Origin: Candidatus Multivorans sp.
GTDB taxonomy: Bacteria; Acidobacteriota; Thermoanaerobaculia; Multivoradales; Multivoraceae
Reading direction: 5' to 3'
DNA length: 64,000 nucleotides
NCBI GenBank assembly: GCA_965205295.1
Contig: OZ242167.1
Span: 3,826,007 to 3,890,006, forward strand
Shown here: positions 42,475-56,541 of the stretch, piece after piece
Layout: every line of letters starts with the position of its first letter
Position numbering within the stretch: the stretch's first letter is position 1
The notes under the pieces: generated by a model
Seen by the model: the letters and a program-made list of their open reading frames with translations, nothing else
Told to the model about the DNA's origin: nothing
The model's database searches: none
Program-made: the position numbers and the translations under genes

Positions 42475-42499
42475 AGCTCGGCGCTGCCCATCTTTACCA

Positions 42500-42560
42500 G
42501 TTGTTCACCTGCCGTGGGGTACGCTCCGCCAGCCTAAACAACTGTTCGACTACACGAGAT
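42500..42560 (+). promoter_or_regulatory. putative Pho-box-like operator upstream of pstS (inverted repeat ACCAGTTGTTCACC ... AAACAACTGTTCGAC)
   Basis: CAGTTGTT and AACAACTG are reverse complements, 25 nt apart. Each lies next to a GTTCACC/GTTCGAC half-site resembling actinobacterial PHO boxes. Location is the pstS 5' region. Confidence 0.3.
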
Positions 42561-43451
42561 TTGGCGCCTGTGAAGACCGCGAAAGTCACCTCCAGCGCAT
42601 GCTGTCTGGTCCTTGCGGCCCTGGTTGTTGCCTGCGGCGGCAGTTCCCGCAACGTGATCCAGAACAAGGGTTCGGACACCCTGGTCAACGTCGCCCAGGC
42701 GTGGGCCGAGAACTACGCGGCCGTGGTTCCGGGCACGGCCGTTGCGGTGACCGGCGGCGGCTCGGGCACGGGCATTTCGGCGATGATCAACGGCACCGTC
42801 GATATCGCGAACTCCAGCCGGCGCATGAAGGACTCCGAGATCGAGCTGGCGCGCGGAAATGGCAACGAACCGATCGAGTTCGTCGTCGGCTTCGACGCGG
42901 TGGCGGTGTTCGTCCATCCCGACAACCCGCTCGGCGAGGTCTCGCTGGAGCAGTTGGCCGAGCTCTACGGTGAGGGCGGCGGGTTCGAGACGTGGAGCCA
43001 GCTCGGCGTCGAGGTGCCGGGCTGCAGCAGCGACGAGATCGTCCGGGTCAGCCGTCAGAACAACTCCGGCACCTACGTCTACTTCCGTGAGGCGGTGCTC
43101 GGCGACCGGCGCGACTTCAAGCTCGGTTCGCGTGACATGCACGGCTCCAAGGACGTGGTCGACCTGGTCGAGAACACGCCCTGCGCGATCGGCTACAGCG
43201 GCCTCGCCTACGCGACGGACCACATCAAGATGCCCTGCGTCAAGACGGGCGAGGACGGCGATTGCGTGTCTCCTTCGGTCGAGACCGCGATCGACCGGTC
43301 CTACCCGATCGCCCGCCCCCTGTTCATGTACACCGCCGGCGAGCCCGAGGGCGCCATCCGCGACTACATGGACTGGGTGCTGAGCGACGAGGGCCAGTGC
43401 ATCATCTACGAGAAGGGCTACGCGCCGCGCGACGGCGTGAACTGTCCCTGA
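42561..43451 (+). CDS. pstS: phosphate ABC transporter substrate-binding lipoprotein PstS
   Basis: A lipobox LVVACGG is present. PstS-family motifs are TGGGSGTGISAMINGTVDIANSSR and GYSGLAY. The start is TTG 42561 or GTG 42570. Confidence 0.85.
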   Translation: MAPVKTAKVTSSACCLVLAALVVACGGSSRNVIQNKGSDTLVNVAQAWAENYAAVVPGTAVAVTGGGSGTGISAMINGTVDIANSSRRMKDSEIELARGNGNEPIEFVVGFDAVAVFVHPDNPLGEVSLEQLAELYGEGGGFETWSQLGVEVPGCSSDEIVRVSRQNNSGTYVYFREAVLGDRRDFKLGSRDMHGSKDVVDLVENTPCAIGYSGLAYATDHIKMPCVKTGEDGDCVSPSVETAIDRSYPIARPLFMYTAGEPEGAIRDYMDWVLSDEGQCIIYEKGYAPRDGVNCP

Positions 43452-43526
43452 ACCAGAGCTTCCAAGCACCAGAACTCCAGCATGACGCGGCGTCCGCAGT
43501 TTCTTGGCGGCTGGTTTGGCTGAGCT

Positions 43527-44525
43527 ATGAGCTTGCGCGGCAGGAGAATTGGCGTACCCCATACGCCACGGCGCAAGCTGCCGGCGCACGCGGCCGACCG
43601 GCGCGATTTCGCCTGGTGGATCGACCGGGCGGTGCAGGTCCTCGTCTTTGCGGGCGGCCTGTCGGCGATCGTCTTCATCGTCGGCATCTTCCTCTTCATC
43701 ACGCGGGAGGGCGCCGGCTTCGTTTTCGATCGCTTCGAGTTCCGCGAGTTCTTCTTCTCGCCGCGCTGGACGCCGACCTCGAACCACAACGCGACCTACG
43801 GCGCGCTGGCCCTGATCGCGGGCACGGCCTCGGTGACCGGGCTCGCAATGGTCGTGTCGGTGCCCTTCTCGCTCGGCGCCGCGATCTACATCGGGGAGTT
43901 CGCCACCGGCCGCACCCGGGAGACGTTGAAGGTGCTGGTGGAGCTCCTGGCCGCGATCCCGTCCGTGGTCTGGGGGTTTATCGGCCTCTCGATCATGAAC
44001 CCGTTGATCATCCAGATCTTCGACGTGCCGGTGGGCCTCAACGTACTGAACTCCGGGATCATCCTGGGTCTGATGGCGGCGCCGATCATGACCACGATCG
44101 CCGAGGACGCGCTCAAGGCGGTGCCCGACGGCTACCGGGAGGCCGCCGAGGCGATGGGCGCCACGCGCTGGCAGGTGACCTTCAAGGTCGTGCTGCCGGC
44201 CGCCCGCAACGGTCTGGTGGCGGCCACGCTGCTCGGTGTCGGGCGCGGCTTCGGCGAGACGATGGCGGTGCTCATGGCGAGCGGCCACTCGATCAACCTG
44301 CCGACCAGCCCCTTCGACTCGGTGCGGGCGCTGACCGCGACCATTGCCGCCGAACTCGGCGAGACGGCGGCCGGTTCCGACCACTACCAGGCGCTGTTCA
44401 CGCTCGGCATCTTCCTGTTCAGCGTGACCTTCGCCATCAACTTCGCGGCCGATGTCTTCGTTCGCGGCGGCCGGCGCAAGCACCGCCGCCGGGGCCGCCG
44501 CCCGGCCGCTTCGGCGAACCCGTAG
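43527..44525 (+). CDS. pstC: phosphate ABC transporter permease PstC
   Basis: A polytopic protein with the EAA-loop region AEAMGATRWQVTFKVVLPAA. Confidence 0.88.
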   Translation: MSLRGRRIGVPHTPRRKLPAHAADRRDFAWWIDRAVQVLVFAGGLSAIVFIVGIFLFITREGAGFVFDRFEFREFFFSPRWTPTSNHNATYGALALIAGTASVTGLAMVVSVPFSLGAAIYIGEFATGRTRETLKVLVELLAAIPSVVWGFIGLSIMNPLIIQIFDVPVGLNVLNSGIILGLMAAPIMTTIAEDALKAVPDGYREAAEAMGATRWQVTFKVVLPAARNGLVAATLLGVGRGFGETMAVLMASGHSINLPTSPFDSVRALTATIAAELGETAAGSDHYQALFTLGIFLFSVTFAINFAADVFVRGGRRKHRRRGRRPAASANP

Positions 44526-44543
44526 GGACGGAGGAGGAAACGC

Positions 44544-45413
44544 GTGTTCGAGGCGACCGAGCGCAACCGGCGCAACCGGAAGGTGGAGAGTCTGTTCCGA
44601 CTCCTCTTCCTGTGGATGACCTGCATGTTGATCGTGCCGGTCGCCCTCATCCTCGGCGTGCTGATCTACAAGGGCGGTCCGGCGATCTCCTGGGAGTTCC
44701 TGTTCACGTCGCCAACGAATGGGATGAAGGCGGGCGGCATCCTGCCCGCTCTGCTGGGCACCGTGTGGCTGGTGGTCGTGGCTCTGCTCGCCTCGGTGCC
44801 GGTCGGCGTGGGGGCGGCGCTCTACCTGAGCGAGTATGCACCGGACAATCGGCTCACCCGGGCCATCAACCTCGCGATCATCAACCTGGCCGGCGTGCCT
44901 TCGATCGTCCATGCGCTGTTCGGCTTGGGCGCCTTCGTCCTCTTCTTCCGCTTGGGCACCAGCATCCTGGCTGCCAGCCTGACCCTGGCGGTGATGACCC
45001 TGCCGGTGGTCATCGTCGCCACCAGGGAGTCGCTCCGGACCGTGCCGCTCGCCTTCCGCGAGGCATGCTGGAACATGGGCGCGACGCGCTGGCAGACGAT
45101 CCGCAAGGTCGTGCTGCCCAACTCGGTCAGCGGCATCCTCACCGGCGTCATTCTCGAGGTCTCCCGTACCGCCGGCGAGACCGCGCCGATCATGTTCACC
45201 GGCGCCGTGTTCTTCCTCCCGTTCCTGCCGCAGGGGGTGCTCGACGAGACGATGGCGATGTCGCTCCACCTGTTCGTCATCTCGACCCAGGTGCCGGAGG
45301 TGCCTGAGCACCTGCCCTTCGGCGTCGCGCTGGTGCTGATCTCCATGGTGCTGGCGATGAACGGGCTCTCCATCGCCTTCCGGGTCTATCTGCGGGGCCG
45401 CAAGAAGTGGTGA
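44544..45413 (+). CDS. pstA: phosphate ABC transporter permease PstA
   Basis: A polytopic protein with CWNMGATRWQTIRKVVLPNSVSGILTG. Confidence 0.88.
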   Translation: MFEATERNRRNRKVESLFRLLFLWMTCMLIVPVALILGVLIYKGGPAISWEFLFTSPTNGMKAGGILPALLGTVWLVVVALLASVPVGVGAALYLSEYAPDNRLTRAINLAIINLAGVPSIVHALFGLGAFVLFFRLGTSILAASLTLAVMTLPVVIVATRESLRTVPLAFREACWNMGATRWQTIRKVVLPNSVSGILTGVILEVSRTAGETAPIMFTGAVFFLPFLPQGVLDETMAMSLHLFVISTQVPEVPEHLPFGVALVLISMVLAMNGLSIAFRVYLRGRKKW

Positions 45414-46195
45414 GCGCTCCCGCGCCGGCGATCGCCGACTCCGACTTCGCGATCGACGTCGTCGACCTGGCGATTCGTTACCAGGGAAAGTTGGCGCTCT
45501 CGGGCGTCACGCTCCGGGTGCCAAGGAACGAGATCTTCGGCGTTATCGGGCCGGCGAACAGCGGCAAGACGTCCTTCCTGCGCGCCATCAACCGGATGGA
45601 CCTGATGACGGCGGGGATGACGGTCGAGGGCGCGGTGCGTGTCGAGGGCCGGGACGTCCGCAGTTGGCGCAATCCCTATGCCCTGCGACAGCGAATCGGC
45701 GTGGTGTTCCCGCTGCCTGTGGGCCTGCCGATGACCATCTACGAGAACGTCGCGCTGTCGTCCCGGCTGCGCGGCACGCGAAGGAAGGCCGACCTGGACG
45801 TGATCGTCGAACGCTGCCTGCGGCGGGCCGCGCTCTGGGACGAGGTGAAGGACCGGCTCGATTCCCTGGGCAGCCTGCTGTCGGGCGGCCAGCAGCAGCG
45901 GCTGACGATCGCGCGCGCGCTGTCCCAGGATCCGTCGATCCTGCTGCTCGACGAGTTCTCGATCGCGGTCGACCCCGTGACCACGATGCGGATCGAGGAG
46001 GTGCTGGCGGAGCTCAAGTCCGAGATGACGATCGTGCTGGTCACGAACCTCGTCCAGCAGGCGCGGCGGTTGGCTTCGCAGACCGCCTTCTTCCTCACCG
46101 GCGAGCTGGTCGAGGTGACCGAGACGGAGGCGATGTTCGAGGGCGGCGCCCAGGATCCGCGGACCACTGCCTACGTCGAGGGGAAGTTCGGATGA
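45407..46195 (+). CDS. pstB: phosphate ABC transporter ATP-binding protein PstB paralog 1 (H-loop His replaced: TNLVQQA)
   Basis: Walker A is GPANSGKTS, the signature LSGGQQQRL and Walker B LLLDEF. The canonical PstB THNMQQA H-loop reads VTNLVQQA. The GTG start overlaps the pstA stop. Confidence 0.85.
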   Translation: MVSAPAPAIADSDFAIDVVDLAIRYQGKLALSGVTLRVPRNEIFGVIGPANSGKTSFLRAINRMDLMTAGMTVEGAVRVEGRDVRSWRNPYALRQRIGVVFPLPVGLPMTIYENVALSSRLRGTRRKADLDVIVERCLRRAALWDEVKDRLDSLGSLLSGGQQQRLTIARALSQDPSILLLDEFSIAVDPVTTMRIEEVLAELKSEMTIVLVTNLVQQARRLASQTAFFLTGELVEVTETEAMFEGGAQDPRTTAYVEGKFG

Positions 46196-47007
46196 CCGAG
46201 GCAACTCCCGCGACGGGAGCGATGCCCGCGGCCGCCGATCCGGCCGCGGCGATCCTGATCGAGAAGCTGAACCTCTGGTACGGCGACTTCCAGGCCCTGT
46301 TCGACGTCGACCTGAACGTGAAGGCGGGCGCGATCACCTCCCTGATCGGCCCCTCCGGATGCGGCAAGACGACCTTGCTGCGCTCGGTCAACCGGATCAA
46401 CGAACGCCTTCCGTACGTGCGCACGTCGGGCCGCATCCGGCTGTGGGGCCTGGATGTCTACGCCCCGGCGGTCGAGCTGGCTCAGCTCCGCAAGCAGATC
46501 GGCATGGTCTTCCAGCGTCCGAACCCGTTGCCGCTGTCGGTGCGGGACAACGTGCTGTTCGGGACTCGAGTCCACCGCCCGAACGAGCGCCCGCCGACCA
46601 GGGTCGAAGGCGATCGGATCGTCGAAGAGGCGCTGCGCGAGGTTCTGCTCTGGGACGAGCTGAAGGACTCGCTCGACCGGCGCGGCACAGAACTCTCGCT
46701 CGAGCAGCAGCAGAAGCTGTGCATCGCGCGTCTGCTGCCGGTCAAGCCGAAGCTCCTGCTGATGGACGAACCCTGCTCGGCGCTCGACCCCGCCGGCACG
46801 GAGGCGGTCGAGGAGCTGATCTGGAGGCTGCGCGGCGAGTACACGATTCTGATCGTTACCCACAACATGGCGCAGGCCCGGCGCGCGAGCGAGGAGTGCG
46901 TGTTCATGCTGCTCGGCGAGATGGTCGAGCACAGCGACACGGCGTCGATGTTCCTCAACCCGGCAAACAGCCAGACTGCGGCCTACATCGAGGGTCGGTA
47001 CGGGTAG
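46192..47007 (+). CDS. pstB: phosphate ABC transporter ATP-binding protein PstB paralog 2 (canonical H-loop THNMAQA)
   Basis: Walker A is GPSGCGKTT, the signature LSLEQQQKL, Walker B LLLMDEP and H-loop VTHNMAQA. The ATGA start overlaps the pstB1 stop. Confidence 0.88.
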   Translation: MTEATPATGAMPAAADPAAAILIEKLNLWYGDFQALFDVDLNVKAGAITSLIGPSGCGKTTLLRSVNRINERLPYVRTSGRIRLWGLDVYAPAVELAQLRKQIGMVFQRPNPLPLSVRDNVLFGTRVHRPNERPPTRVEGDRIVEEALREVLLWDELKDSLDRRGTELSLEQQQKLCIARLLPVKPKLLLMDEPCSALDPAGTEAVEELIWRLRGEYTILIVTHNMAQARRASEECVFMLLGEMVEHSDTASMFLNPANSQTAAYIEGRYG

Positions 47008-47074
47008 CTGGCGGCGTGCCCAGCGTTCCGCGCGACGAAACGGGACCTGACGAAGCCATTTCCACAGGGATCCG

Positions 47075-47533
47075 TCAGCAGTTTCTCCCCCGGAATTCTC
47101 CCGCGGCCTCCGCGCTCCGTACCCATGCCGCGACATCGTCAATCAAGTGCACGAATCTGCGTTTCCCCGGCCCGCGCAGCGCGCATTCCCATACCGTCAG
47201 GCAACGCCATCCCGCCACGCGCAGCGCATTCCGAACCTCTGCGTCACGTTCTTGGTTGCGCCGGATCTTGCCGTCCCAGAAGTCCGTTCTGGTGGCCGGA
47301 CGCTGGAATAGCGGACAATCGTGCCCGTGCCAGAAGCACCCGTGAACCAAGACGGCGGCACGGAACCGTGGCAGTACGATATCCGGCTTGCCGGGCAGCT
47401 CCGCCACATGGGTGCGATACCTGAATCCGCGCGCATGGAGCGCTTTCCGGACCGCCATTTCCGGTGCCGTGTTCTTGCTTCGCACCGAGGCCATAAGGCG
47501 GCTTCGCGAACGCCGGTCCAGGCTGTCGGCCAC
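47075..47533 (-). CDS. vsr: very-short-patch-repair endonuclease Vsr
   Basis: The 152-aa product has FVHGCFWHGHDC and TDFWDGKIRRN(QE)RD motifs. It is the last gene of the minus-strand array dcm-X-Y-vsr. GTG start. Confidence 0.88.
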   Translation of the reverse strand: MADSLDRRSRSRLMASVRSKNTAPEMAVRKALHARGFRYRTHVAELPGKPDIVLPRFRAAVLVHGCFWHGHDCPLFQRPATRTDFWDGKIRRNQERDAEVRNALRVAGWRCLTVWECALRGPGKRRFVHLIDDVAAWVRSAEAAGEFRGRNC

Positions 47534-47568
47534 GAAGCGCTCCTCCTTGCTGGGAAGGTTCCTGGGCC

Positions 47569-48588
47569 CTAAAGACGAATGTCCGGCTGGCCTTGACGTG
47601 CGTAGAACGAGGAAAACCTGGAGATGATGTCTTTGATGAAACTCGGAGCGATGCGCACGTTCAAGGACTGAAAGCTCCTTTCAAACCCCTCCCACGGTGC
47701 CGTCTCGAGCCGTCGAAAATCTACGAAGCCGGCCGCTATGCCACCAGACTGCGGCAACCAGTGGAAGTAGTTGGAGTCGTTGTTCTTCCTCAACCGCTTC
47801 TGGCGCTTGCGGTCCGCTCCTACTCTCTCGAACAGGGCTTCCTCAGGCACGACTTCCGCCACCACCACGATGTCAGTCTTGGGCTTTCCGCTGGGTCGAA
47901 TCACTAGGTCGCATGCGGGCGTCATCACCACGTGAGAAGTCTCTCCATCCGTCCGCCGAACAAGGGTCCCCGTCTGCAGCGAGTCCTTAAGTGGCGGGGC
48001 CAGGTACACTTCCTCGGCGTAGCAAGGCGTTTCATCCGCCTCCAACTCCGCCGCCAAGTGGCCCAGGGTGTAGCGCAACAGCGCCTTCTTGGTCCGCTCC
48101 TTATCCTCTCGCCCATAGTCCACCCACATGTCGATCGTCGGAAGCAGGTTCGCTAGGAAGACTCCGTTCAGTCGTTCCTCCAACAGCCCCCGGCCGCCCA
48201 TGATCTCGGTCAGGCCGACGTCGAAAATCTCCCAGAGGCGGTCCAAGATCTCGTCGAACCCATGTTTACCCTTGGTGTAGACACCGACGACGGGCGGCTC
48301 ATCTACCGCGTCGGCGGGCGTTCCTGTCAGGACCGCGACCGGAACGCGGAAGTGGCTCTTGAGCTCTTCAATGACCTCTCCACCGTCGGAGGTGTCCCTG
48401 CCTAGGTTCAGGTCGACGATAGCTGCGTCAATCGACCCGTCCAGACTGCTCTTCGCATCGGCCAAGGTTGTCTGAACACGCATCTCTATCTGCCGGCCGT
48501 GCTCTTCGACGTAGTCCTTGAGAACCTCTCGGTATTCATCCACCAAGCTGGGCTCGTCCTCCACCAACAGCAGTTCAAGCGCACTCAC
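47569..48588 (-). CDS. response-regulator receiver (REC) domain protein with ~220-aa C-terminal domain of unknown function (candidate effector)
   Basis: The REC landmarks are LLLVEDE (acidic pocket), AAIVDLNLG (phospho-acceptor Asp), VAVLTG (Thr) and YTKGKH (Lys). The C-terminal half (…PACDLVIRPSGKPKTDIVVVAEVVPEE…NYFHWLP…) matches no family recognisable by eye. The GTG start with a GGAGAA RBS overlaps the upstream kinase stop (GTGA). Confidence 0.75.
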   Translation of the reverse strand: MSALELLLVEDEPSLVDEYREVLKDYVEEHGRQIEMRVQTTLADAKSSLDGSIDAAIVDLNLGRDTSDGGEVIEELKSHFRVPVAVLTGTPADAVDEPPVVGVYTKGKHGFDEILDRLWEIFDVGLTEIMGGRGLLEERLNGVFLANLLPTIDMWVDYGREDKERTKKALLRYTLGHLAAELEADETPCYAEEVYLAPPLKDSLQTGTLVRRTDGETSHVVMTPACDLVIRPSGKPKTDIVVVAEVVPEEALFERVGADRKRQKRLRKNNDSNYFHWLPQSGGIAAGFVDFRRLETAPWEGFERSFQSLNVRIAPSFIKDIISRFSSFYARQGQPDIRL

Positions 48589-50756
48589 GCCGGTTCTCCA
48601 TCTTCTGCACCGCCGGTGTCGACGGGCTGAAGCCGGAACCACGCGCCACCTTCGTGCTCCATGGCCTTTAGTTCCAGGCCGTTTCTAGTCGCTGCTTCCC
48701 CGGCAATCGCGAGTCCCAGCCCCATGCCGTCCGGCTTCGTCGAGAACTGCGGCTCGAAGACCACTCCGCTCACGATGTGTTCAGGTTCGATTCCAGGACC
48801 CGTGTCAGTGTAGTCAACGTGCAGCAACCTCTCGTCGTCGGTCGAGATCGCTATCTCTATGCGCTTTTCGGCAGCCTTGGTTGTGTGTAGCCAGTAGAGG
48901 CTGTTGTCGATCAGGTTCGTGAAGATCGCTTGAATGTCCTGCCGCCAGCATGGGTACTTGACCGATCTATCGCCGACAATGCGGCAAGTCACACCCGCTC
49001 GGTCCAATTCTCCAGAAAACGTATCCTGAGCGCGCCGGATGACCCTGAGCAACACTTCCGACTTCCTGCGGGAACGACGTTGCGCCGCCAACGGATCAAG
49101 CCGGCCGAACAGCGTTACCAAGTCGCTCGCGTTCTCCGCTATGCCCGTTGCCCCATCCACTATCTTCGGCACTAGGATCGGGTCGCGCGTCTTCTCGAAG
49201 CGAGTGGCGTGTTTCCGGAGGAGCGGGAATTGGTTGCGGAAGTAGCTCAACGGCCGGCGGCCCTCGTGGAGCACGACGTTGATGATCTTGCCCAGTGTCG
49301 CCTGGCCTTGGTACACCGCAATCGCGTCGCGCAATCGCCTGACAGTCTCGCTTCGCTGCTGCTCTTCGGACTCGATCAGGGCGATCACTTCGGCAGCGGT
49401 CGTGTCGCTCACCCGGGCTCCGCGTAGCGTAGACCGGACTTCGCGCTTCAGAGCATCGAAGGAGTAGAGCCTCTCCAGTTGGCGCTCGACTTTGAACGTC
49501 TTCCTGCCCAAGCCGGCGCGCTGCCGGTACAAGTAGCGTTTCTCCTCCAGCCTGGCGATCACTTTCGTGGTGATGTCCTTCAGCCGGCCGAAGGCCTCGT
49601 TATCGATGAGTCCGTCCCTCGCGCTCTTCTCGATAAGCTGCGATTGTTCTTCCGACTGGATCTGGACGTAGCCGATGACTTGGTTGTTGCCGATGCGAAA
49701 GGCGGGCCTCTGCACGCGCTGCTCGTTGAGTTTGAGCCAGTCGAACTCGGGATCGCCCAGCGGGCGCAGGCGGAATCCGTTCCTGTACACGCCGATACCG
49801 TTGTATTTGTTCAATAGTTGTCGTGTTTGAAGCCTGCCTAAGTAGTTCCCGAGGGCGTCCTTCAACCCACGGCGAATGAGCTGGTCCACCGAGGCTGGAT
49901 CCCGGTCGTAAACCCGAATATCGATCTCAAGCTCCCCGCACCCGGAAGGCCCTTCTAAGTCAATGAGGATCTCTTCGTCCACCGCGTTTCGCGACTTTTG
50001 CTGAGAGTACACGACGGACCCAGTTCCGTCGGCCCCTATCTTGCCCGCGATCCGATAGTCGAAGTGTTCAACGAGCGGAAAGGGTTCCACCTGAGCGTTC
50101 ATATCGTGCACGCCAGGCAGGTCGGAGATGCGGAGAACTACGTCAAAGGGCTGCTCGGTCGCCATTGTCAAAAAGGGAGACATCAGCTTCCTGAGCTCGA
50201 ACTGCAGCTTGTTGAACTGTGAGTCGCTCCAAGGCGGAAGGCTCTTCTCGTCGACGGCCATGGTCAGCGTCGTTCCTGCCTCCTGCTCGACTGACTCCGT
50301 CTCGATCAGGATCTCCACGTCCTCCAGATACTCGGCGCGCTCGAAATCGGCCCATTGGAGGTAGAGGGTGGTCTTCTCTCCAGAGGCCGTCGTTGTCTCT
50401 AGGAGAAGGTCCTTGCCAAGGATCGAGGCTGCGTAGCGGCCGATTCCCTTCCGGCCCTGCATGGTCCTGCCAGCCGGGCTGTGGCCGTCCCGGTGATCTT
50501 TGTCCGGTGTTGACGGGACCATCCACTTGTTGATGACCGTGTCGCGCGTCATGCCGTGGCCGTGGTCGGCGAACTTGATCTGAAACTCGCCATTGCCGGT
50601 CCGCTCGAACGCGATTACCGCGTCCGGCGAGTCTGCGTCGTAGGCGTTCTTGACGAGCTCGATGACCGCCGCATGCGGATCCTGGACCAAGTCGCGTCCG
50701 ATCGTCAGGATGTGCCGTCCGGCGGGCCGGATCCTGTATGAGCCAGACTTAGGCAT
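48585..50756 (-). CDS. fusion protein: N-terminal Bergerat-fold GHKL ATPase (MutL/MORC-like) + C-terminal histidine-kinase core (H-box, N/G1/G2 boxes)
   Basis: The N-terminal motifs are ELVKNAYDA (motif I), DHGHGM (motif II) and GRKGIGRYAA (GxxGxG). The C-terminal H-box is VLHEGRRPLSYF. About 110 aa later come the N-box NLIDNSLYW, G1 DTGPGI and G2 GMGLGL. The ATG at 50756-50754 overlaps the last codons of dcm. Confidence 0.75.
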   Translation of the reverse strand: MPKSGSYRIRPAGRHILTIGRDLVQDPHAAVIELVKNAYDADSPDAVIAFERTGNGEFQIKFADHGHGMTRDTVINKWMVPSTPDKDHRDGHSPAGRTMQGRKGIGRYAASILGKDLLLETTTASGEKTTLYLQWADFERAEYLEDVEILIETESVEQEAGTTLTMAVDEKSLPPWSDSQFNKLQFELRKLMSPFLTMATEQPFDVVLRISDLPGVHDMNAQVEPFPLVEHFDYRIAGKIGADGTGSVVYSQQKSRNAVDEEILIDLEGPSGCGELEIDIRVYDRDPASVDQLIRRGLKDALGNYLGRLQTRQLLNKYNGIGVYRNGFRLRPLGDPEFDWLKLNEQRVQRPAFRIGNNQVIGYVQIQSEEQSQLIEKSARDGLIDNEAFGRLKDITTKVIARLEEKRYLYRQRAGLGRKTFKVERQLERLYSFDALKREVRSTLRGARVSDTTAAEVIALIESEEQQRSETVRRLRDAIAVYQGQATLGKIINVVLHEGRRPLSYFRNQFPLLRKHATRFEKTRDPILVPKIVDGATGIAENASDLVTLFGRLDPLAAQRRSRRKSEVLLRVIRRAQDTFSGELDRAGVTCRIVGDRSVKYPCWRQDIQAIFTNLIDNSLYWLHTTKAAEKRIEIAISTDDERLLHVDYTDTGPGIEPEHIVSGVVFEPQFSTKPDGMGLGLAIAGEAATRNGLELKAMEHEGGAWFRLQPVDTGGAEDGEPA

Positions 50757-52011
50757 GCCAATCCTCTCGGATCCGGGCCGCGATCCCGCGGGACAAGAGC
50801 ACGGGGACTGCGTTGCCGATCTGGCGAAACGCGTGTGTCCGTGACGGCCGCAGCCCGACGCCTTCGAAGTAGTAGTCGTCGGGAAAGGTCTGCAGCCGCG
50901 CCGCCTCCCGCGGCGTGATGGACCGGTTCTGTTCAATGTCGGGGTGAATGTAGTAGTGACCATCCTTGCAGATGTGGGCGACCACGGTGTGCGCGAACGG
51001 CAAGTTTCCCGCCACGACCTTGAACCTGTCCATGAACGCGGCCTTGTTCCGGTGGGTCTTGAGGTGCGGCGGCAATGTGCTGTATCGCAGCCTGGATCGC
51101 CGTTCGTTCCACTCCGTCACCGCTATACGGTAAATCTCGAGATCCCGCTCCGTATGAGGGCGCGCCTGATGCCAAGTCAACGGCAGCGAGCCGCTGACAC
51201 CCGCCTCGACTTGCCACGTGCTCTTGCACGGCAGGCGATGGCACGGCGCGACATCGCCTTCTCCGGCACTAAGCGGGGGCAGGCCCCCGAAGGCCTCGCT
51301 CACGGTGACATCCGGCGCCCACCGCCTCGGCTCAGGGTAGACAGCCGTGCTGCCTTCGCAATGCCCGACCAAGACCACACGTCTCCTGTTCTGCAGCACT
51401 CCGTAGTCCTTCGCGCTCAGGATGCGAAAGCGAGTGTCGTAGCCTAGCTTGCTGAACAAGCGCCGCATGGCGTCCAAGTAACTCGCCCCGTCGCGGTCCT
51501 TGGCCGAAAGAAGCCCAAGGACGTTCTCGAACACGAACACCTTGGGGCGGTACTTCTCCAAGAACTTCGCATAGCACTTGTAAAGGTGATTTCGGTTGTC
51601 CGCCACCATGCCCTTGGGGTCGCGAGAGCGACCGACGATGGAGTAGGCTTGGCAGGGAGGGCCGCCGATGAGCAGGTCCAGTTCGTGCCCGTCCAACCGG
51701 GAGTCGATCTCGCCGTAGATCCGCCGCAAAGTGTCTGGCCGTATCTCCTCGTTGATGACAGAGCGCACAACCTGTTGCGGCACTGCCGCGTACAGCATGT
51801 CCCGGTCGATACTGCCTGCTAGGTAGTCCGCGTACACGTCCTCACGACCGGCTGCTACGAGCCAGTGATAGGCCATTCGGGTACGCAGGGTGTTGCATGC
51901 CGCCGCATCCGTCTCGACATGCGCGATGGGCTGGTAGCCCTCCTGTATGAAACCTTCCGAGAGTCCGCCGCCGCCAGCAAAAAGGTCGACGAAACTCAAT
52001 CGATTACGCAT
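50749..52011 (-). CDS. dcm: DNA (cytosine-5)-methyltransferase (Dcm-like)
   Basis: The C5-MTase motifs are I FVDLFAGGGG, IV GGPPCQAYS, VI ENV and X QIGNAVPV. The start was set at ATG 52011 (MRNRLSFVDLFAGGGG) with an AAGGAA RBS. The track TTG start is at 52041. Confidence 0.88.
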   Translation of the reverse strand: MRNRLSFVDLFAGGGGLSEGFIQEGYQPIAHVETDAAACNTLRTRMAYHWLVAAGREDVYADYLAGSIDRDMLYAAVPQQVVRSVINEEIRPDTLRRIYGEIDSRLDGHELDLLIGGPPCQAYSIVGRSRDPKGMVADNRNHLYKCYAKFLEKYRPKVFVFENVLGLLSAKDRDGASYLDAMRRLFSKLGYDTRFRILSAKDYGVLQNRRRVVLVGHCEGSTAVYPEPRRWAPDVTVSEAFGGLPPLSAGEGDVAPCHRLPCKSTWQVEAGVSGSLPLTWHQARPHTERDLEIYRIAVTEWNERRSRLRYSTLPPHLKTHRNKAAFMDRFKVVAGNLPFAHTVVAHICKDGHYYIHPDIEQNRSITPREAARLQTFPDDYYFEGVGLRPSRTHAFRQIGNAVPVLLSRGIAARIREDWHA

Positions 52012-52198
52012 TCCGGCTGGTTCCTTTGTTCGCACGCTCAAACTCCGCCGATTGTAGACGAGCCAGCGTGACGGCCGATCCTAGCAGGTCACGGGCGCGT
52101 CTCCAGTCATCGAGTCGCTTGCCGCGCTCGTCGCTGGAGGGAAAACTAGGGGATCTTTTCAAAACAAAGGCTCCCGACGGCAATTGCGAGAGGCTCCC

Positions 52199-55100
52199 TT
52201 ACGCCGGTCGTGTTGGTTTGCCGCCGTGGACCGTTGGTTCCGCGCACCACTGGCGACGGAGCAGGTCCAGTGGATCGAGCAGTTCGTTCGGCAGGCCAAG
52301 CACGTCGATCAACACTGCCCGGTCAAGCGCGATGCGGTTCTCGTCGCGGTAGGCCTCGTTGGCGGGCAGGAACGCGGCTTGGCGGAACCCCTCCAGCAAG
52401 CTGGCCGCCTGGGTGATCTGCTTCTCGTCCAGCGCCCGCGGGTCGAGTACGGGGAGTCGAGGAAGCCTGCTGATCGTCAGTATGACACGGCCCTGCTGCT
52501 GCCGGCTCCCGTGCCACCAGAAGGTCATCATGCCCAAGGTGGTGTTTGCCCACAGCAGCACGGCGGACGACCAAGCCTCGTCTTCCAGCTTGAAGTTGGG
52601 CCAAGCCCTGCCGCCCAGCGTCTTGCGCCGCGTCACGCAGGCGGCGAGGGGCTGCGAGTTCAGTTGGAAGTCGAGGCTGAAGTGGAGTCGACTCGCGGTC
52701 CGCCGCCAGGTTCGTGCGGCCCGGTCTGCACAGTTCGGCCGTGGCTGCCCGAAGGAATCCGGCTCGATCTCCAGATGCCGTTCCCGCGCCGCATCATGGC
52801 TCCATAGCGCCGGATAGGTCGGCACTCGACCTTCTTCCCAGGGACGAATGTCGAACGGACCGCGCGGCGGCTTGTCCTCTCCGGGAGGAGTGCCGTTGAT
52901 GTCCCTGTGAACCAGGCCGCGACTGCCGATGGAACCCAGTGGCGCGACCGGGGTCCGGTGTTCCTGCGAGAGCCGGGGCAGGACAAGCCTTCCGTCGTCA
53001 AGAGCTAGCATCGTCCGAGCGAGACCTGGTTCGACGATCGATGCTGCGCCCCCGTTGGTCAGGCCGGTGCGCACGAAAGTGCCGCTCGTCTGGCAGGGCG
53101 TGAGCTCGATCAAGCCCGTGCCTCCGGGGAGATCGCGTATTCGGCGAGCTACGCTGACGGCCTCCAGAACCGTCCGCGGCCGCTTCCGCAGGCTGGCGAA
53201 CAGGGTTTCCGGACCTTGGAGGGGGATTCTCGCTACAGAGCCGAGAGCCTTGGTGCCGACGAGGAGCACCTCAGCCATGCCCGTGTCAGCGGAGAAAGCG
53301 CGGTCGGTCGTCCCCGTAGCGGCGATGGAGACAACGGTCAGATCGCTGAAGAACCCGGCGAGGAGACGACGCGCGGCGTTCCAGGATTCCCCCTGGACAA
53401 ACGAGGCGGGCAGCACAAGGGCCAGGATGCCGCCTGGGCGCAGCTTCAGGTGGGCTAGGTCGACGAAGTTCGACGCCAAGCCGGCGTTGCCGTGCCCGGC
53501 GGAAATCTCCAGCCCGGCTCTCAGTTCCTTCAAACGCCGTGACATCACCCGCTGCTCTTCGGCGCTGGTCGCGAAGCCCGCGAAGGACGGGACAGGAACA
53601 TCCGTGGACTCGTGGTTTGTTGGCCGCGTGAAAGGCGGGTTCATGATGACGAGATCGAAGCTCTCGTTCGGCACCTCCACGATCTTCGGGTCTACGGTCG
53701 ATGCGCCGCCGTGAAGCTCGACGACTCCGGTGTCGAATAGAGGCAGCACACGCTCGTCCGCCAGCAGGTCCAGCGAGCCGATGGCATGCCGACCGCCGCC
53801 TTGCTCTGCTTCGCCGTAGGGCATGGTGTAGATGCGCGTTCGTTTGAAAGGTTGCTGCGGATGGGCGCTGGAGAGAATCGCTGCCGTCAGGTGCGTCGCT
53901 GCCGGCATGATGTCGGCGCCGGTCAACACCTGCTCCATCATCTCGTGGTGGAGCTTCCGGTCGTCGCGTCCGGCCCGCCGCAGCCTTGCGCCCACCCGGT
54001 GCTGGACCGCCGACAACAGGGCGCCGGTGCCGCATGCGAAGTCGGCGATTCGCAGGCGCGCTACCGCTGCTTCGTCGGCCCAGTCGACGTTGAGTCTGGC
54101 GGCCGCCAGTTCGGCAAGCAGGTGAGCGCTGGCTGGGAGCGTGTAGAAGGTGGCCAGGAACTTCCGGTCGCTGATCAGGCGCTGGAACAGAATGCCCGAC
54201 AGATCCTGGATCGTGGTGGCGCCGAGACCCGCGAGTTGAGACGCAGCGTCGATCAGTCTGCCAAGGCACTGCTCAGTCTCACGCTCCGGGATCACCCTCA
54301 GCACGTCGTAGGCGATCTCGAAGATCGGCCAGTAGTCGATGTCGAGCACCTGCTCCCAGGCCCGCAGAACGCGCCTCTTCGAGGTGTTCCCGTGCTTGCT
54401 GCTCAGAGCACTCAAGTCAGGGATGTCCTGGACTCCCGCTATGGCGGACTGAAACAGCAGCGCGTCGAGCAGGATTGCCATCGCCATGCGGGTGGTCTGC
54501 TCGCAGTCTTCCTGGTGTAGAGCGCTTGCAATCCGGCGCAGAACCTCCGGACTGCGGTCGGGTGCCGATCGTCGAAGCCGCTCCGCAGTGGTTCGGACCG
54601 CCCGTTCGAGCAGTTCCAGCCCCTCAGCAATTCGCTGTTCCGAGAGGGACACCTGTTCGACGCAGTCGGCAAGTTCGTCGATTCCGCCTTCAAGCCAATC
54701 GCTTCCGGGCCAGCGTTGAACCGCGCGGCCTTCAAGGGGCGAGCCGGAGAAGGTGCACCATCGGAAACGCCCAGACAGGATGCCGGGACCAAGGTCGCCG
54801 CCGCCTTCGCCCAGATGACCGGGGATGCGCACCGCTAAAACCGCCTCAAGGAGGTCGCCCGTGTCGTGCAACACGCGGCCCAGTCGATTCTTCGCGTCGT
54901 CTTCAACGGTGCGCGCTGGCTCGTACTCGGTCTCCAGGACGACCGGCATGCCGGCTGGGGGCCGCACGACAATGTCCGGTTGGGCACCCGCGTACTCCCT
55001 GATCACTCCCGTTTCTTCGGCCGCTATCCTCCACGAGTCAGGGAGTTTCCGGCTGAGTACGGTAGCCAGGGCGTTGTTGAACGCGGTCTCGACGGTGCGG

Positions 55101-55237
55101 GGCACGGATGCCCGATCATACGGGGTACATCCAACGGTCCGCGCATGTGGGCCCGACAGGAGGGGCTTTGTGGACCAATGGAGCCCGTACCCGATCAGTC
55201 GCGGCCCTGTGAGCATGGAGCGGCTCGGCTGTGCCAT
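52199..55237 (-). CDS. large N6-adenine DNA methyltransferase-domain protein (Type IIG/IIL or BREX-PglX-like; possible N-terminal PD-ExK-like nuclease)
   Basis: The ~1010-aa product has motif I IADFACGTGALL and motif IV VIMNPPF about 115 aa later. The N-terminal ~280 aa contain QPDIVV...VLETEYE. A long C-terminal region is TRD-like. The start was set at ATG 55237, 35 bp from the divergent ATPase gene. Confidence 0.65.
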   Translation of the reverse strand: MAQPSRSMLTGPRLIGYGLHWSTKPLLSGPHARTVGCTPYDRASVPRTVETAFNNALATVLSRKLPDSWRIAAEETGVIREYAGAQPDIVVRPPAGMPVVLETEYEPARTVEDDAKNRLGRVLHDTGDLLEAVLAVRIPGHLGEGGGDLGPGILSGRFRWCTFSGSPLEGRAVQRWPGSDWLEGGIDELADCVEQVSLSEQRIAEGLELLERAVRTTAERLRRSAPDRSPEVLRRIASALHQEDCEQTTRMAMAILLDALLFQSAIAGVQDIPDLSALSSKHGNTSKRRVLRAWEQVLDIDYWPIFEIAYDVLRVIPERETEQCLGRLIDAASQLAGLGATTIQDLSGILFQRLISDRKFLATFYTLPASAHLLAELAAARLNVDWADEAAVARLRIADFACGTGALLSAVQHRVGARLRRAGRDDRKLHHEMMEQVLTGADIMPAATHLTAAILSSAHPQQPFKRTRIYTMPYGEAEQGGGRHAIGSLDLLADERVLPLFDTGVVELHGGASTVDPKIVEVPNESFDLVIMNPPFTRPTNHESTDVPVPSFAGFATSAEEQRVMSRRLKELRAGLEISAGHGNAGLASNFVDLAHLKLRPGGILALVLPASFVQGESWNAARRLLAGFFSDLTVVSIAATGTTDRAFSADTGMAEVLLVGTKALGSVARIPLQGPETLFASLRKRPRTVLEAVSVARRIRDLPGGTGLIELTPCQTSGTFVRTGLTNGGAASIVEPGLARTMLALDDGRLVLPRLSQEHRTPVAPLGSIGSRGLVHRDINGTPPGEDKPPRGPFDIRPWEEGRVPTYPALWSHDAARERHLEIEPDSFGQPRPNCADRAARTWRRTASRLHFSLDFQLNSQPLAACVTRRKTLGGRAWPNFKLEDEAWSSAVLLWANTTLGMMTFWWHGSRQQQGRVILTISRLPRLPVLDPRALDEKQITQAASLLEGFRQAAFLPANEAYRDENRIALDRAVLIDVLGLPNELLDPLDLLRRQWCAEPTVHGGKPTRPA

Positions 55238-55272
55238 GATGCCGTCATATTTCCCGGAACAATGACGGCGAC

Positions 55273-56433
55273 ATGTACAACGAACCCTATCCCCGACTCT
55301 CCCGCCTTCCGGGTCGGAGCTTCTTCCTGCTCGGCGTCCGAGGGGTCGGCAAGAGCACTTGGGCCCGGCAGAACCTCGGCGACGCTCACCGGGTTGACCT
55401 GCTAGACGAAGCGCGCTTTCACGACTACTTGGTCGATCCGGCGTTGTTCGCGGCGGAACTGCGGTCGGTTCCACCCGGAGGCTGGGTGGTGGTCGACGAG
55501 ATTCAGCGCCTGCCGAACCTGCTGAACGAGGTTCATCGGTTCATCGAAGGGCATCGGCTCCGCTTTGCACTCCTCGGGTCCAGCGCCCGAAAGCTGAAGG
55601 CGGCTGGAGTCAACCTGCTGGCGGGGCGAGCGCTGCGCCGGATGATGCACCCTCTGACGCCGGCGGAACTCGGCCGCGAGTTCGACTTCGAGGCCACACT
55701 TCGATGGGGAACCATTCCACTCGTTTGGACCGCCGAGGACCGGCGCGCGACGCTCGAGAGCTATGTGCAGCTCTACCTCCGTGAGGAGATCCGGGCCGAG
55801 GCACTGGTGCGGAATCTGGCCGGCTTCGCCCGTTTCCTGCAGGTTGCCGCTCTCTGTCATGGAGCCACCGTCAACGTGTCGGGCATCGCGCGCGAGTGCG
55901 GCGTCGCCCGAACCACCGTGCAGGGATACCTGGACATCCTGGAAGACACCCTGCTGGCGTACAGGCTGCCAGCCTTCGAAGCGAAGCTGCGCGTGCGCGA
56001 GCGCCGTCACCCGAAGCTCTACTGGGTCGACCCGGGGCTCGTTCGGGCGACGAAGCGGCTTTTCGGTCAGGTCGCGCCCGAGGAGCGCGGAACGCTCCTC
56101 GAGGGATGGGTGCTGCACCTGCTCCGAGCGCACGGGGAGGAGACCGACCTGTACGAGGCGGTCCACTACTGGAGCCCGCACTCCGCGGCCCACACTGAGG
56201 TGGACTTCCTCCTGCGCCGTGGCCGCGAGTTACTGGCGATCGAAGTGAAGTCCCAGGCCAGGTACCACACGGGTCTGCTCCGCGGCTTGCGCGCGGTGGC
56301 CGAACTGGCCGGCATGAGCCGGAGGATCCTCCTGTACGGCGGCAGGCGATCGTTTCGCACCGAAGACGGTATTGAAGTTTGGACGTTCGACGATCTGCAC
56401 CAGGCATTGGCGGAGGATGCGCTCTGGCCGTGA
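55273..56433 (+). CDS. AAA-family ATPase with C-terminal DUF4143 (AAA_14/DUF4143 family)
   Basis: Walker A is LLGVRGVGKST and Walker B VVVDEIQ. The C-terminal DUF4143-like region is RRHPKLYWVDPGL. Confidence 0.75.
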   Translation: MYNEPYPRLSRLPGRSFFLLGVRGVGKSTWARQNLGDAHRVDLLDEARFHDYLVDPALFAAELRSVPPGGWVVVDEIQRLPNLLNEVHRFIEGHRLRFALLGSSARKLKAAGVNLLAGRALRRMMHPLTPAELGREFDFEATLRWGTIPLVWTAEDRRATLESYVQLYLREEIRAEALVRNLAGFARFLQVAALCHGATVNVSGIARECGVARTTVQGYLDILEDTLLAYRLPAFEAKLRVRERRHPKLYWVDPGLVRATKRLFGQVAPEERGTLLEGWVLHLLRAHGEETDLYEAVHYWSPHSAAHTEVDFLLRRGRELLAIEVKSQARYHTGLLRGLRAVAELAGMSRRILLYGGRRSFRTEDGIEVWTFDDLHQALAEDALWP

Positions 56434-56541
56434 TGGGGTCAGTCGGCCTGGACCGCTTGCAGCCTCGGCCAGGCCGCGGCTCGGCTCGCTGTGGCATCAT
56501 CGACCGCTGTTCCGGAATACGCGTCGAATGGGAGGCAAGGT

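Follow-up and report, generated by a model that had tools for sequence, protein, structure and literature searches.

We found that a single gene of the window (the whole stretch of DNA that was analysed, 64,000 nucleotides) encodes a protein in which a MutL/MORC-type Bergerat ATPase is followed by a histidine-kinase core with H-box, N, G1, F and G2 motifs, an arrangement that held by sequence, by profile and by fold. In our main reading, to which we give a probability of about 0.5 as a whole, the ORF is a soluble bona fide histidine kinase with a complete paraMORC/MutL-type GHKL+S5 ATPase as input domain, and it belongs to a methylase-associated defence or selfish module in which the paraMORC ATPase would serve as cytoplasmic sensor and a His-Asp phosphorelay would turn on an effector. 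The dual-GHKL architecture and the methylase/Vsr context were already published in 2021 in a purely computational work (Bellieny-Rabelo, Pretorius & Moleleki 2021, Genome Biol Evol; PMC8011034), and we found no experiments on this kinase family in the searchable literature. The genes and domains are as follows.

52199..55474, minus strand: large N6-adenine methyltransferase-like protein, 157 bp upstream and co-oriented, with motifs DFACGTGALL and NPPF
50749..52011, minus strand: C5 cytosine DNA methyltransferase, 420 aa, ATG at 52011 (ORF open to 52041), stop overlapping the kinase start
48585..50756, minus strand: dual-GHKL sensor kinase, 723 aa (paraMORC-type GHKL + S5 ATPase, helical linker, DHp, CA)
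50307..50699, minus strand: N-terminal Bergerat (GHKL) ATP-binding domain of the kinase, aa ~20-150, with E33/N37 (ELVKNAYDAD), D64xGxG68 and G101xKGxGR107
49599..50306, minus strand: S5-type transducer domain, aa ~151-386, with motifs GIGVYRNGFRLRPLG (aa 320-334) and EKSARDG (376-382)
49311..49598, minus strand: helical linker from the ATPase module to the DHp, aa 387-482
49098..49298, minus strand: DHp (HisKA-like) helical hairpin, aa 487-553, with the predicted phospho-acceptor His497 in VLHEGRRPL (codon 49266-49268)
48621..49064, minus strand: CA (catalytic ATP-binding) domain, aa 565-712, with N box N614/N618, G1 D651xGxG, F box and G2 G677xGLGL
47569..48588, minus strand: cognate response regulator, 339 aa, GTG start overlapping the kinase stop
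48265..48588, minus strand: receiver (REC) domain of the regulator, aa 1-108, with acidic pair E10-D11, predicted phospho-acceptor D59 (codon 48412-48414), T88 and K106
47572..48264, minus strand: effector domain of the regulator with no fold assigned, aa 109-339, a four-helix part followed by a mixed alpha/beta part
47075..47533, minus strand: Vsr very-short-patch (T:G mismatch) repair endonuclease, 152 aa, last gene of the cassette

The kinase gene is a single intact reading frame

The first-pass annotation had placed the kinase correctly at 48585-50756 and had left out its strand, which is the minus strand; a plus-strand reading was rejected, as the interval is full of stops in that direction. 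On the minus strand the interval is one uninterrupted ORF. Its start is the ATG at 50756 (MPKSGSYRIR...), preceded by a Shine-Dalgarno GAGAGGA and common to all full-length homologues. A further ATG, at 50963, would open a longer ORF, which was rejected because it overlaps the methylase gene and the extension is absent from all homologues. An 8-nt overlap joins the stop of the upstream methylase gene to the ATG at 50756 (the stop/start overlap reads ATGCCTAA), and the overlap between kinase and regulator is GTGA; judging from these junctions, the kinase is translationally coupled to both the upstream C5 methyltransferase and the downstream regulator.

An artefact, with two genes joined where a stop or frameshift was overlooked or with one of the GHKL domains surviving as a decayed relic, is refuted and keeps practically no probability. 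We found no point in its favour: the ORF is unbroken, over 110 of the best 120 cluster representatives have a length of 715-725 aa (58-98% identity) and both domains, and in each domain all ATP-binding and catalytic motifs stay invariant even in clades below 30% identity. The earlier claim of a single polypeptide thus stands.

Domains of the kinase

All the motifs that had been read from the letters were recovered, namely ELVKNAYDA (aa 33-41), DHGHGM (64-69) and GRKGIGRYAA (101-110) in the N-terminal module, and VLHEGRRPL (495-503), NLIDNSLYW (614-622), DTGPGI (651-656) and GMGLGL (677-682) in the kinase core. The Pfam domains predicted for the two ends were also detected: HATPase_c_3 (PF13589) at aa 28-148 (E 1.3e-18, 67.8 bits, cut-off 25) and HATPase_c at aa 607-710 (E 1.9e-17, 64.1 bits, cut-off 26.4). 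[quoted passage not shown] In the PDB, MORC3 was matched by aa 27-130, and the DHp and CA of FixL by aa 463-709. The residues E33 and N37 and the motifs D64xGxG and GxKGxGR were invariant in 34 homologues and in divergent clades.

The roughly 350 aa between the two modules, said by the first-pass annotation to match nothing obvious, turned out to hold an S5-type transducer as in MORC and MutL, directly C-terminal to the GHKL domain as in MORC/paraMORC ATPases, and then a linker of four helices (387-414, 418-431, 433-446 and 451-482, by AlphaFold2/DSSP). The AlphaFold2 model of the kinase was moderately confident (pLDDT 69.5). The kinase is soluble, with no hydrophobic segment (maximum Kyte-Doolittle(19) 1.15).

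The C-terminal core combines a DHp histidine with a CA domain carrying the N, G1, F and G2 boxes, as in two-component histidine kinases. The pair H497-E498 is invariant, and its region aligns with the DHp of FixL, AtoS and HK853. The H-box reads H497-E-G-R-R501, so that position H+4 is R501 and lacks the T/N used for HisKA phosphatase activity; PF19191 (HEF_HK) is likewise reported without it. From the intact residues of kinase and regulator we infer autophosphorylation of the former and transfer to an aspartate of the latter.

The response regulator and its effector domain

The regulator is a REC-like protein with the conserved Asp, Thr and Lys and no further known domain; precomputed Pfam lists of 120 homologues held only PF00072 or nothing. 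An entry of 339 aa (P0121) was 100% identical, and the AlphaFold2 model reached a pLDDT of 87. The C-terminal domain, found almost exclusively behind a REC, conserves E193, P224-x-C226-D227, H276, N/D290, K319 and R331-Q-G-x-P335, with an invariant Cys226 and a Cys-His-Asn/Asp arrangement. Polar residues that stay invariant at 26-42% identity form the pattern expected of an enzyme.

We detected no DNA-binding family (HTH, wHTH or other) in the effector at E <= 10 in 13 members or by PDB profile. Profile searches, including PADLOC and a PDB profile, detected no relation of the effector to any nuclease, toxin or defence family, and a toxic output is therefore an assumption. Two enzyme readings were rejected: PD-(D/E)xK, since the candidate residue, E244 on the third strand, lacks conservation and is not followed by a Lys, and a CX5R phosphatase, since the effector has CX4R spacing and distant homologues do not conserve R231.

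The cassette, its island and its relatives

The methyltransferase matched Pfam DNA_methylase (E 1.8e-52), TIGR00675 dcm and a DrmMII-type PADLOC model (E 1e-156), and in the PDB M.HaeIII, DNMT1 and M.HhaI; the Vsr gene matched Pfam Vsr (E 9e-31) and PADLOC Vsr (E 5e-36). No nuclease family that could supply a restriction endonuclease partner for the methylase was detected in kinase or regulator. The cassette forms an island with GC and GC3 below those of its flanks, and its neighbours are the N6-methylase-like gene (weak Eco57I, MTase_II and MAD2 matches) and a PADLOC PDC-S01 candidate; no flanking direct repeats and no tRNA were found at the island borders. The 1091-aa N6-methylase-like gene precedes the cassette in no more than 3 of 56 loci, for which reason we rejected it as part of the core; it probably forms a type IIG-like module that is separate or accessory.

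Kinase and regulator were adjacent in every assessable related locus, and the methylase adjoined them in 46 out of 53. These methylase-kinase-regulator cassettes occur at 50-80% identity in many bacterial phyla (Acidobacteriota; Gamma-, Alpha-, Delta- and Zetaproteobacteria; Bacteroidota; Chlorobi; Nitrospirae; Chloroflexi; Spirochaetes; Firmicutes) and in two archaea (Methanosarcina and Methanoperedenaceae), and methylase identity co-varies with kinase identity across the 46 loci. A Vsr gene was present anywhere in the locus in 30 of 56 cases and was directly downstream and co-oriented in 24 related loci, with the same gene order as in the window in locus L060. Elsewhere the same cassette adjoins Abi, toxin-antitoxin, integrase and other restriction-modification (R-M) genes.

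In sister clades the dual-GHKL kinase is kept while output and methylase type are swapped, as in Bacteroides and Deinococcus, with a short REC protein, an HNH endonuclease gene and an N6 methylase; this modularity is typical of defence systems. Relatives on Campylobacter and Bacillus plasmids have no adjacent methylase, and others lie beside complete R-M systems that already bring a nuclease (Dcm + EcoRII in L046, type I in L025), so that the kinase-regulator pair may be an accessory or independent module and not the 'R'. No homologue was found in phage genomes searched with the regulator protein, nor was anything found in E. coli complete genomes searched with the DNA of a Yersinia homologue. 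PADLOC defence models gave no match for kinase or regulator beyond the GHKL N-terminus.

Comparison with known systems

The closest description is 'group 1' of PMC8011034, defined as HATPase_c_3 + HEF_HK + HATPase_c with Response_reg_2, the REC-like gene lying next to the kinase, with a C5 methylase upstream and a Vsr downstream. The window proteins share with it the soluble kinase with HATPase_c_3, a DHp in which the His is followed by an acidic residue, and HATPase_c, the adjoining REC-like gene with no other known domain, the upstream C5 methylase and frequent downstream Vsr, and the sporadic distribution over several phyla. They differ in the H-box, which is HEG and not HEF in the window clade; the S5 transducer and the C-terminal effector of the regulator are additions of the present analysis to PMC8011034. 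Among the window proteins and eight relatives tested, PF19191 had no match in the window kinase or in Yersinia (E <= 10), nor in the Bacillus, Campylobacter, Agrobacterium, Bacteroides and Deinococcus relatives (E <= 1 or 0.1), and PF19192 (Response_reg_2) had none in the window regulator or the relatives tested; the models are too narrow or missing from the library used. Nor was PF19191 among the Pfam entries precomputed for 240 homologue clusters.

MORC and paraMORC proteins, among them the BbrUII/HgiDII-type restriction enzymes, are GHKL+S5 ATPases of R-M systems (Iyer, Abhiman & Aravind 2008; PMC2292703). They resemble the window kinase in the N-terminal Bergerat fold with S5 transducer and intact ATPase motifs, in the neighbourhood of cytosine methylase and Vsr, and in lateral mobility. 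Their ATPases are fused to or partnered with nucleases or helicases; in the paraMORC3/Shedu nuclease VcSduA, defence depends on the GHKL ATPase, which presumably controls the C-terminal nuclease (PMC12137116). Neither MORC proper nor paraMORC1-5 was described with a kinase core (PMC2292703). The window ATPase, in contrast, is fused to a His-kinase core, so that its output would be relayed through phosphorylation to a separate protein.

Detocs established that a relay from kinase to REC-effector can be anti-phage (Rousset et al. 2023, bioRxiv 10.1101/2023.01.24.525353). By analogy, the window system may follow the same logic, with a cytoplasmic sensor kinase phosphorylating a REC-effector whose output is not a transcription factor, and in both the effector domains are swappable among relatives. 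The window proteins nevertheless had no PADLOC match to Detocs models: their sensor is a GHKL+S5 ATPase and not TPR repeats, the cassette has no stand-alone 'buffer' REC gene as opposed to the three-gene operon DtcA, DtcB and DtcC, the effector is not a PNP ATP nucleosidase, and only the window family is associated with a DNA methylase and Vsr. Compared with HisKA-type kinases (HK853, FixL, ThkA, DivL), the window kinase has no transmembrane, PAS, HAMP or GAF input, carries at the sensor position a second GHKL module predicted to hydrolyse ATP, and lacks T/N at H+4; a MutL/MORC-type ATPase ahead of the kinase core is, as had been proposed, not a standard sensor-kinase architecture. Unlike type II R-M systems, the cassette has no recognisable restriction endonuclease.

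Proposed mechanism and alternatives

The mechanism that we infer, with its phosphotransfer, sensed cue, effector chemistry and role in defence, would start from an R-M-like cassette of C5 methyltransferase, kinase, REC-effector regulator and often Vsr, translationally coupled and mobile by horizontal transfer. The methylase would mark host DNA, and Vsr would repair the T:G mismatches that arise from 5-methylcytosine deamination. The N-terminal ATPase would act as an ATP-driven dimerising clamp, like MORC and MutL, reporting an intracellular nucleic-acid cue, most plausibly DNA without the methylation of the cassette. The suggestion of the first-pass annotation that this ATPase senses DNA or its methylation state is reasonable, and PMC8011034 speculates likewise that the HATPase_c_3 domain occupies the sensor position. 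Closure of the clamp might be passed through the ~100-aa helical linker to the DHp, where the CA domain would phosphorylate His497; the phosphoryl group could then move to Asp59 of the regulator and release or activate the 230-aa effector enzyme, with a toxic or restrictive output.

A more specific version is tentative, and we hold it less probable than the general one: methylation-gated immunity, that is, restriction through a His-Asp phosphorelay in which the MORC-like clamp would sense DNA without the 5-methylcytosine mark and activate a thiol enzyme (Cys226, His276 and Asn/Asp290, in papain-like order) acting on the invader or the cell.

The pair could instead be an abortive-infection or plasmid-competition toxin that hitch-hikes beside methylases in defence islands, its cue being a phage or plasmid protein or nucleotide depletion and the methylase having no mechanistic part. 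We consider this unlikely, though the least improbable of the alternatives, since the overlap of methylase stop and kinase start in the window clade and the co-variation of their identities across the 46 loci argue for a functional unit and not a chance neighbourhood. Somewhat less probable still is an ordinary regulatory two-component system responding to a cytoplasmic cue (nucleotide pool or DNA state), in which the regulator's C-terminus would bind DNA and control the methylase/vsr operon or nearby R-M genes in the manner of a C protein. REC-output proteins are mostly transcription factors, the effector begins with a four-helix bundle, and the pair sometimes adjoins complete R-M systems. 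PMC8011034, too, proposes a regulatory role over R-M systems. Against this stand the negative searches for DNA-binding families, the invariant C226, D227, E193, H276 and N/D290, which look catalytic and not DNA-reading, a horizontal mobility across phyla and two archaea that is unlike that of host-integrated regulators, and a main clade with no nuclease gene to regulate.

The joining of a MutL/MORC-type GHKL+S5 module with Dcm and Vsr also brings to mind an accessory of DNA repair or epigenetic maintenance, in which the MutL-like ATPase would work with Vsr and the C5 methylase at T:G mismatches or hemimethylated sites and the kinase-regulator arm would signal damage. E. coli MutL stimulates Vsr. 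Iyer et al. 2008 draw a parallel from paraMORC-methylase-Vsr neighbourhoods to mismatch or very-short-patch repair (PMC2292703). We find such a role improbable, more so than a regulatory one: Vsr is missing from many of the loci in which the regulator is always present, relatives carry N6 methylases with HNH nucleases or no methylase at all, and a repair helper would not need a phosphorelay with a dedicated enzyme-like effector.

Implications

If the cassette has no more than a regulatory role, it adds modestly, though in an unusual form, to two-component systems. If it is defensive, it would extend phosphorelay immunity, so far represented by Detocs, into restriction-modification, and the effector would add a new family of enzymes, about 1,100 clusters when grouped at 50% identity. 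Methylation-gated immunity, if true, would be the first R-M-like system with a phosphorylation-activated effector of new fold as its 'R', and for the first time the closing of a MORC clamp would be read out directly as a kinase signal. The eukaryotic MORC chromatin regulators descend from bacterial MORC/paraMORC ATPases; here such an ATPase is joined directly to a kinase core, so that the cycle of its conformations should read as phosphorylation, which would make the trigger of a prokaryotic MORC experimentally tractable.

Gene organisation of the locus

The kinase gene belongs to a set of five co-oriented genes on the minus strand of the window, which share a stretch of low GC content (GC 60-65%, GC3 0.73-0.78).

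Genes of the low-GC island (window coordinates, strand, product)
52199-55474, minus: large N6-methyltransferase-like protein (DFACGTGALL, NPPF)
50749-52011, minus: C5 cytosine methyltransferase
48585-50756, minus: dual-GHKL kinase
47569-48588, minus: response regulator, 339 aa (GTG start overlaps the kinase TGA, as GTGA)
47075-47533, minus: Vsr
55273-56433, plus: AAA_14/DUF4143 gene (match to PADLOC candidate PDC-S01)

GC3 is higher, at 0.85-0.93, in the pst-like and acyl-CoA dehydrogenase genes on either side. The island spans positions ~47000-56500, with a GC content of ~69% in its flanks, and its borders showed neither a tRNA nor an integrase nor flanking direct repeats. It is adjoined by a phosphate-transport-like operon (42249-47007, plus strand) comprising a PBP_like_2 binding protein, two permeases and tandem PstB-like ABC ATPases (45407-46195 and 46192-47007), the second of which lies 68 bp from the end of the Vsr gene. 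The AAA_14 and DUF4143 ATPase at the island edge matched the PADLOC 'PDC-S01' phage-defence candidate models (E 3e-52); at its 5' end it overlaps the upstream end of the N6-methylase-like ORF. The latter encodes 1091 aa (true start probably near aa 80-120), with gamma-class N6-adenine methyltransferase motifs (DFACGTGALL at aa 478, NPPF at aa 612) and with ~400 aa at the N-terminus and ~350 aa at the C-terminus without assigned function. It matched Eco57I, MTase_II and MADS MAD2 weakly and had no relative in the PDB; a methylase of type IIG-like or BREX/MADS-like kind is a possible reading.

The minus strand of 48585-50756 forms a single open reading frame, while the plus-strand reading is riddled with stops. 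The longer start of the ORF finder (ATG at 50963) was rejected because the extension falls within the upstream gene. We placed the start at the ATG at 50756 (MPKSGSYRIR...), which is preceded by GAGAGGA, overlaps the upstream stop codon (ATGCCTAA) and is the start point in all full-length homologues; the product has 723 aa. The methylase, kinase and regulator genes are translationally coupled.

Domain architecture of the kinase

All the motifs from which the first-pass annotation had read two GHKL modules were found in the kinase. Both modules were recovered with Pfam (HATPase_c_3 at aa 28-148, E 1.3e-18; HATPase_c at aa 607-710, E 1.9e-17), well beyond the curated cut-offs, and the N-terminal motifs therefore do score as a GHKL domain. 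A split into two genes is contradicted by the homologues: more than 110 of the 120 best clusters were 715-725 aa long and contained both domains (58-98% identity).

The ~350 aa between the modules, which had been described as matching nothing obvious, correspond to a transducer, a linker and a DHp hairpin. In NCBIfam, aa 20-166 aligned with the N-terminus of BbrUII/HgiDII-family restriction enzymes and with MutL, and aa ~453-710 with the DHp and CA cores of AtoS, FixL, PhoR and ZraS; the PDB sequence matches were MORC3 (aa 27-130) and FixL (aa 463-709). As the alignments exceed the length of a bare Bergerat fold, the region past aa 150 is an S5-type transducer domain, by which the MutL/MORC/gyrase-B class is defined. 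It contains the two motifs best conserved in the middle region, GIGVYRNGFRLRPLG (aa 320-334) and EKSARDG (aa 376-382), both of which are kept even in clades below 30% identity. Helices at aa 387-482 join it to the DHp hairpin (aa 487-553), where H497-E498 is invariant, and the CA domain follows (N614/N618, D651xGxG, F box, G677xGLGL). No hydrophobic segment was found in the kinase. In the N-terminal ATPase, the catalytic Glu (E33) and the Asn that binds Mg are likewise invariant, and both ATP sites thus look functional. The protein is an intact paraMORC-type ATPase joined via helices to an intact His-kinase core.

The response regulator and its effector domain

The kinase has a dedicated REC-effector partner in which the predicted phospho-acceptor residues are intact: Asp59, the phospho-acceptor, was conserved in 100% of the sequences, Asp11 in 98%, Thr/Ser88 in 99% and Lys/Arg106 in 100%. 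In the remaining 230 aa (aa 109-339; window 47572-48264) a four-helix part precedes one of mixed alpha/beta structure. This effector domain had no match in Pfam, NCBIfam, PADLOC, PDB sequences or BFVD, and no PDB chain ranked above the REC matches. Its profile recovered 1101 clusters among 1.84 billion representatives (614 at E <= 1e-10), almost all of 330-390 aa with the domain placed after an N-terminus of ~110 aa. In one library protein of 571 aa (P0241), the effector domain (aa 330-568) is attached directly to the N-terminal half of a C5 methylase (aa 105-244), and the kinase and REC are both absent; this protein is a natural fusion or else what a deletion has left of the cassette.

The most conserved effector residues were E193 (99%), P224 and C226 (100%), D227 (98%), H276 (91%), N/D290 (97%), K319 (93%) and, at the C-terminus, R331-Q332-G333-x-P335 (100%), and appear to be those of an enzyme. 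Cys226 sits in P-x-C-D. In the predicted secondary structure the Cys starts a short helix, the His is on a strand and the Asn/Asp on the next strand, an order that may recall a papain-like or transglutaminase-like triad. Neither a PD-(D/E)xK nor a CX5R reading fits.

Distribution and gene neighbourhoods

We scanned one genome per species and recovered 56 loci with relatives at 44-79% identity. Bacterial loci came from Acidobacteriota, several proteobacterial classes (including Yersinia, Haemophilus, Rodentibacter and Neisseria sicca), Bacteroidota, Chlorobi, Nitrospirae, Chloroflexi, Latescibacterota, Spirochaetes and Firmicutes, and two loci were archaeal (Methanosarcina and Methanoperedenaceae). 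A search of phage genomes returned no homologue. The regulator gene was located 3' of the kinase in every locus with a full-length kinase and a contig continuing beyond it. An orthologous C5 methylase was found 5' of the kinase in 46 out of 53 assessable loci, its identity tracking that of the kinase up and down. Vsr was immediately downstream in 24 loci and present anywhere in 30. The large N6 methylase-like gene accompanied the cassette in only 3 of the 56 loci and was not retained as a core component.

Where the cognate methylase is missing, the kinase-regulator pair adjoins other defence modules: a type I R-M system (L025), Dcm and EcoRII (L046), an HNH_2 nuclease (L010) or Abi_2 (L051). 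On plasmids, the pair adjoins AbiJ in Enterobacter mori, lies close to a dcm gene in Bacillus and stands alone in Campylobacter conjugative plasmids. The cassette occurs in a mobile, defence-island context. The C. jejuni plasmid CP120313.1 (L059, 4986-8162) and ~40 similar Campylobacter conjugative plasmids (about 51-73 kb) carry a 36%-identical pair without an adjacent methylase; in a subset of these records the kinase is in two pieces, annotated as 'HAMP domain-containing sensor histidine kinase' and hypothetical protein.

Dual-GHKL kinases at a greater distance (25-37% identity over the ATPase half) retained all motifs with changed partners. In a sister clade on plasmids of Bacteroides finegoldii (L062, 4977-10079) and Deinococcus gobiensis (P2; L063, 3526-8493), a weak-REC protein of ~210 aa and then an HNH endonuclease come after the kinase, and an N6/Eco57I-type methylase adjoins; in Agrobacterium a 433-aa protein of no recognised type comes next, and Vsr and Dcm are close by. 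These outputs have just the REC-like N-terminus in common with the regulator of the window. A constant sensor-kinase with swappable outputs and methylases is a pattern known from modular defence systems.

Relation to published systems

Starting from a Pectobacterium gene with "two HATPase domains (PF02518; PF13589)", Bellieny-Rabelo, Pretorius and Moleleki (2021, PMC8011034) reported 644 regions in which such kinases (HEF_HK, PF19191) are linked to a REC-like gene (Response_reg_2, PF19192); the dominant architecture was HATPase_c_3 + HEF_HK + HATPase_c. They described upstream C5 methylases, frequent downstream Vsr and HNH_2 as the most frequent nearby nuclease, proposed paraMORCs as the origin and treated function by speculation only; full-text literature searches returned no later experimental work on these elements. 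The dual-GHKL architecture is thus already published and widespread, and the first-pass annotation, correct in its observation and sound in its interpretation, overstated the novelty. PF19191 and PF19192 matched neither the window proteins, nor eight relatives from five clades, nor 240 homologue clusters (precomputed Pfam lists), and the H-box reads HEG in the window kinase instead of the HEF of HEF_HK. We therefore file the window gene, by architecture and context, as a member of this published kind in a clade outside the coverage of its Pfam models.

GHKL+S5 ATPases of the paraMORC type are established R-M components (Iyer et al. 2008, PMC2292703), in a set that includes no kinase-fused family. 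VcSduA (PMC12137116) indicates that a defence nuclease can be gated by a GHKL ATPase, and Detocs shows that a relay from kinase to REC-effector can itself be an anti-phage system; PADLOC detected no homology to Detocs. DefensePredictor (PMC13092281) lists an unvalidated predicted system in which HATPase and REC domains occur together and which could be this one or another.

Proposed function and alternatives

We propose that the ATPase module acts as the sensor: driven by ATP as in MORC and MutL, it would dimerise at the N-terminus around nucleic acid or in response to it, this would be relayed to the DHp, His497 would be phosphorylated, Asp59 would take the phosphate and the effector enzyme would be released. 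The methylase would supply the self mark, and Vsr would offset its mutagenic cost. We give this whole package a probability of about 0.5. Phosphotransfer from kinase to regulator is probably real, the odds of a defence or selfish role are roughly even, and unmethylated DNA as the sensed cue is a tentative suggestion.

The strongest counter-evidence to simply taking the pair as the restriction enzyme is the complete EcoRII or type I systems found beside it, together with the methylase-less plasmid copies. An abortive-infection-type module that makes no use of the methylase is rather unlikely; the co-varying C5 methylase points away from it. Control of R-M genes by a transcriptional regulator would suit the neighbouring R-M systems and seems less likely still, given the enzyme-like residues of the effector. 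An accessory role in Vsr/Dcm repair would suit the presence of both genes in the cassette; we consider it improbable, as Vsr occurs in only part of the loci.

For the relay proposed here, the interest now lies in function, namely in the cue to which a prokaryotic MORC-type clamp responds and in the action of the invariant-Cys effector.
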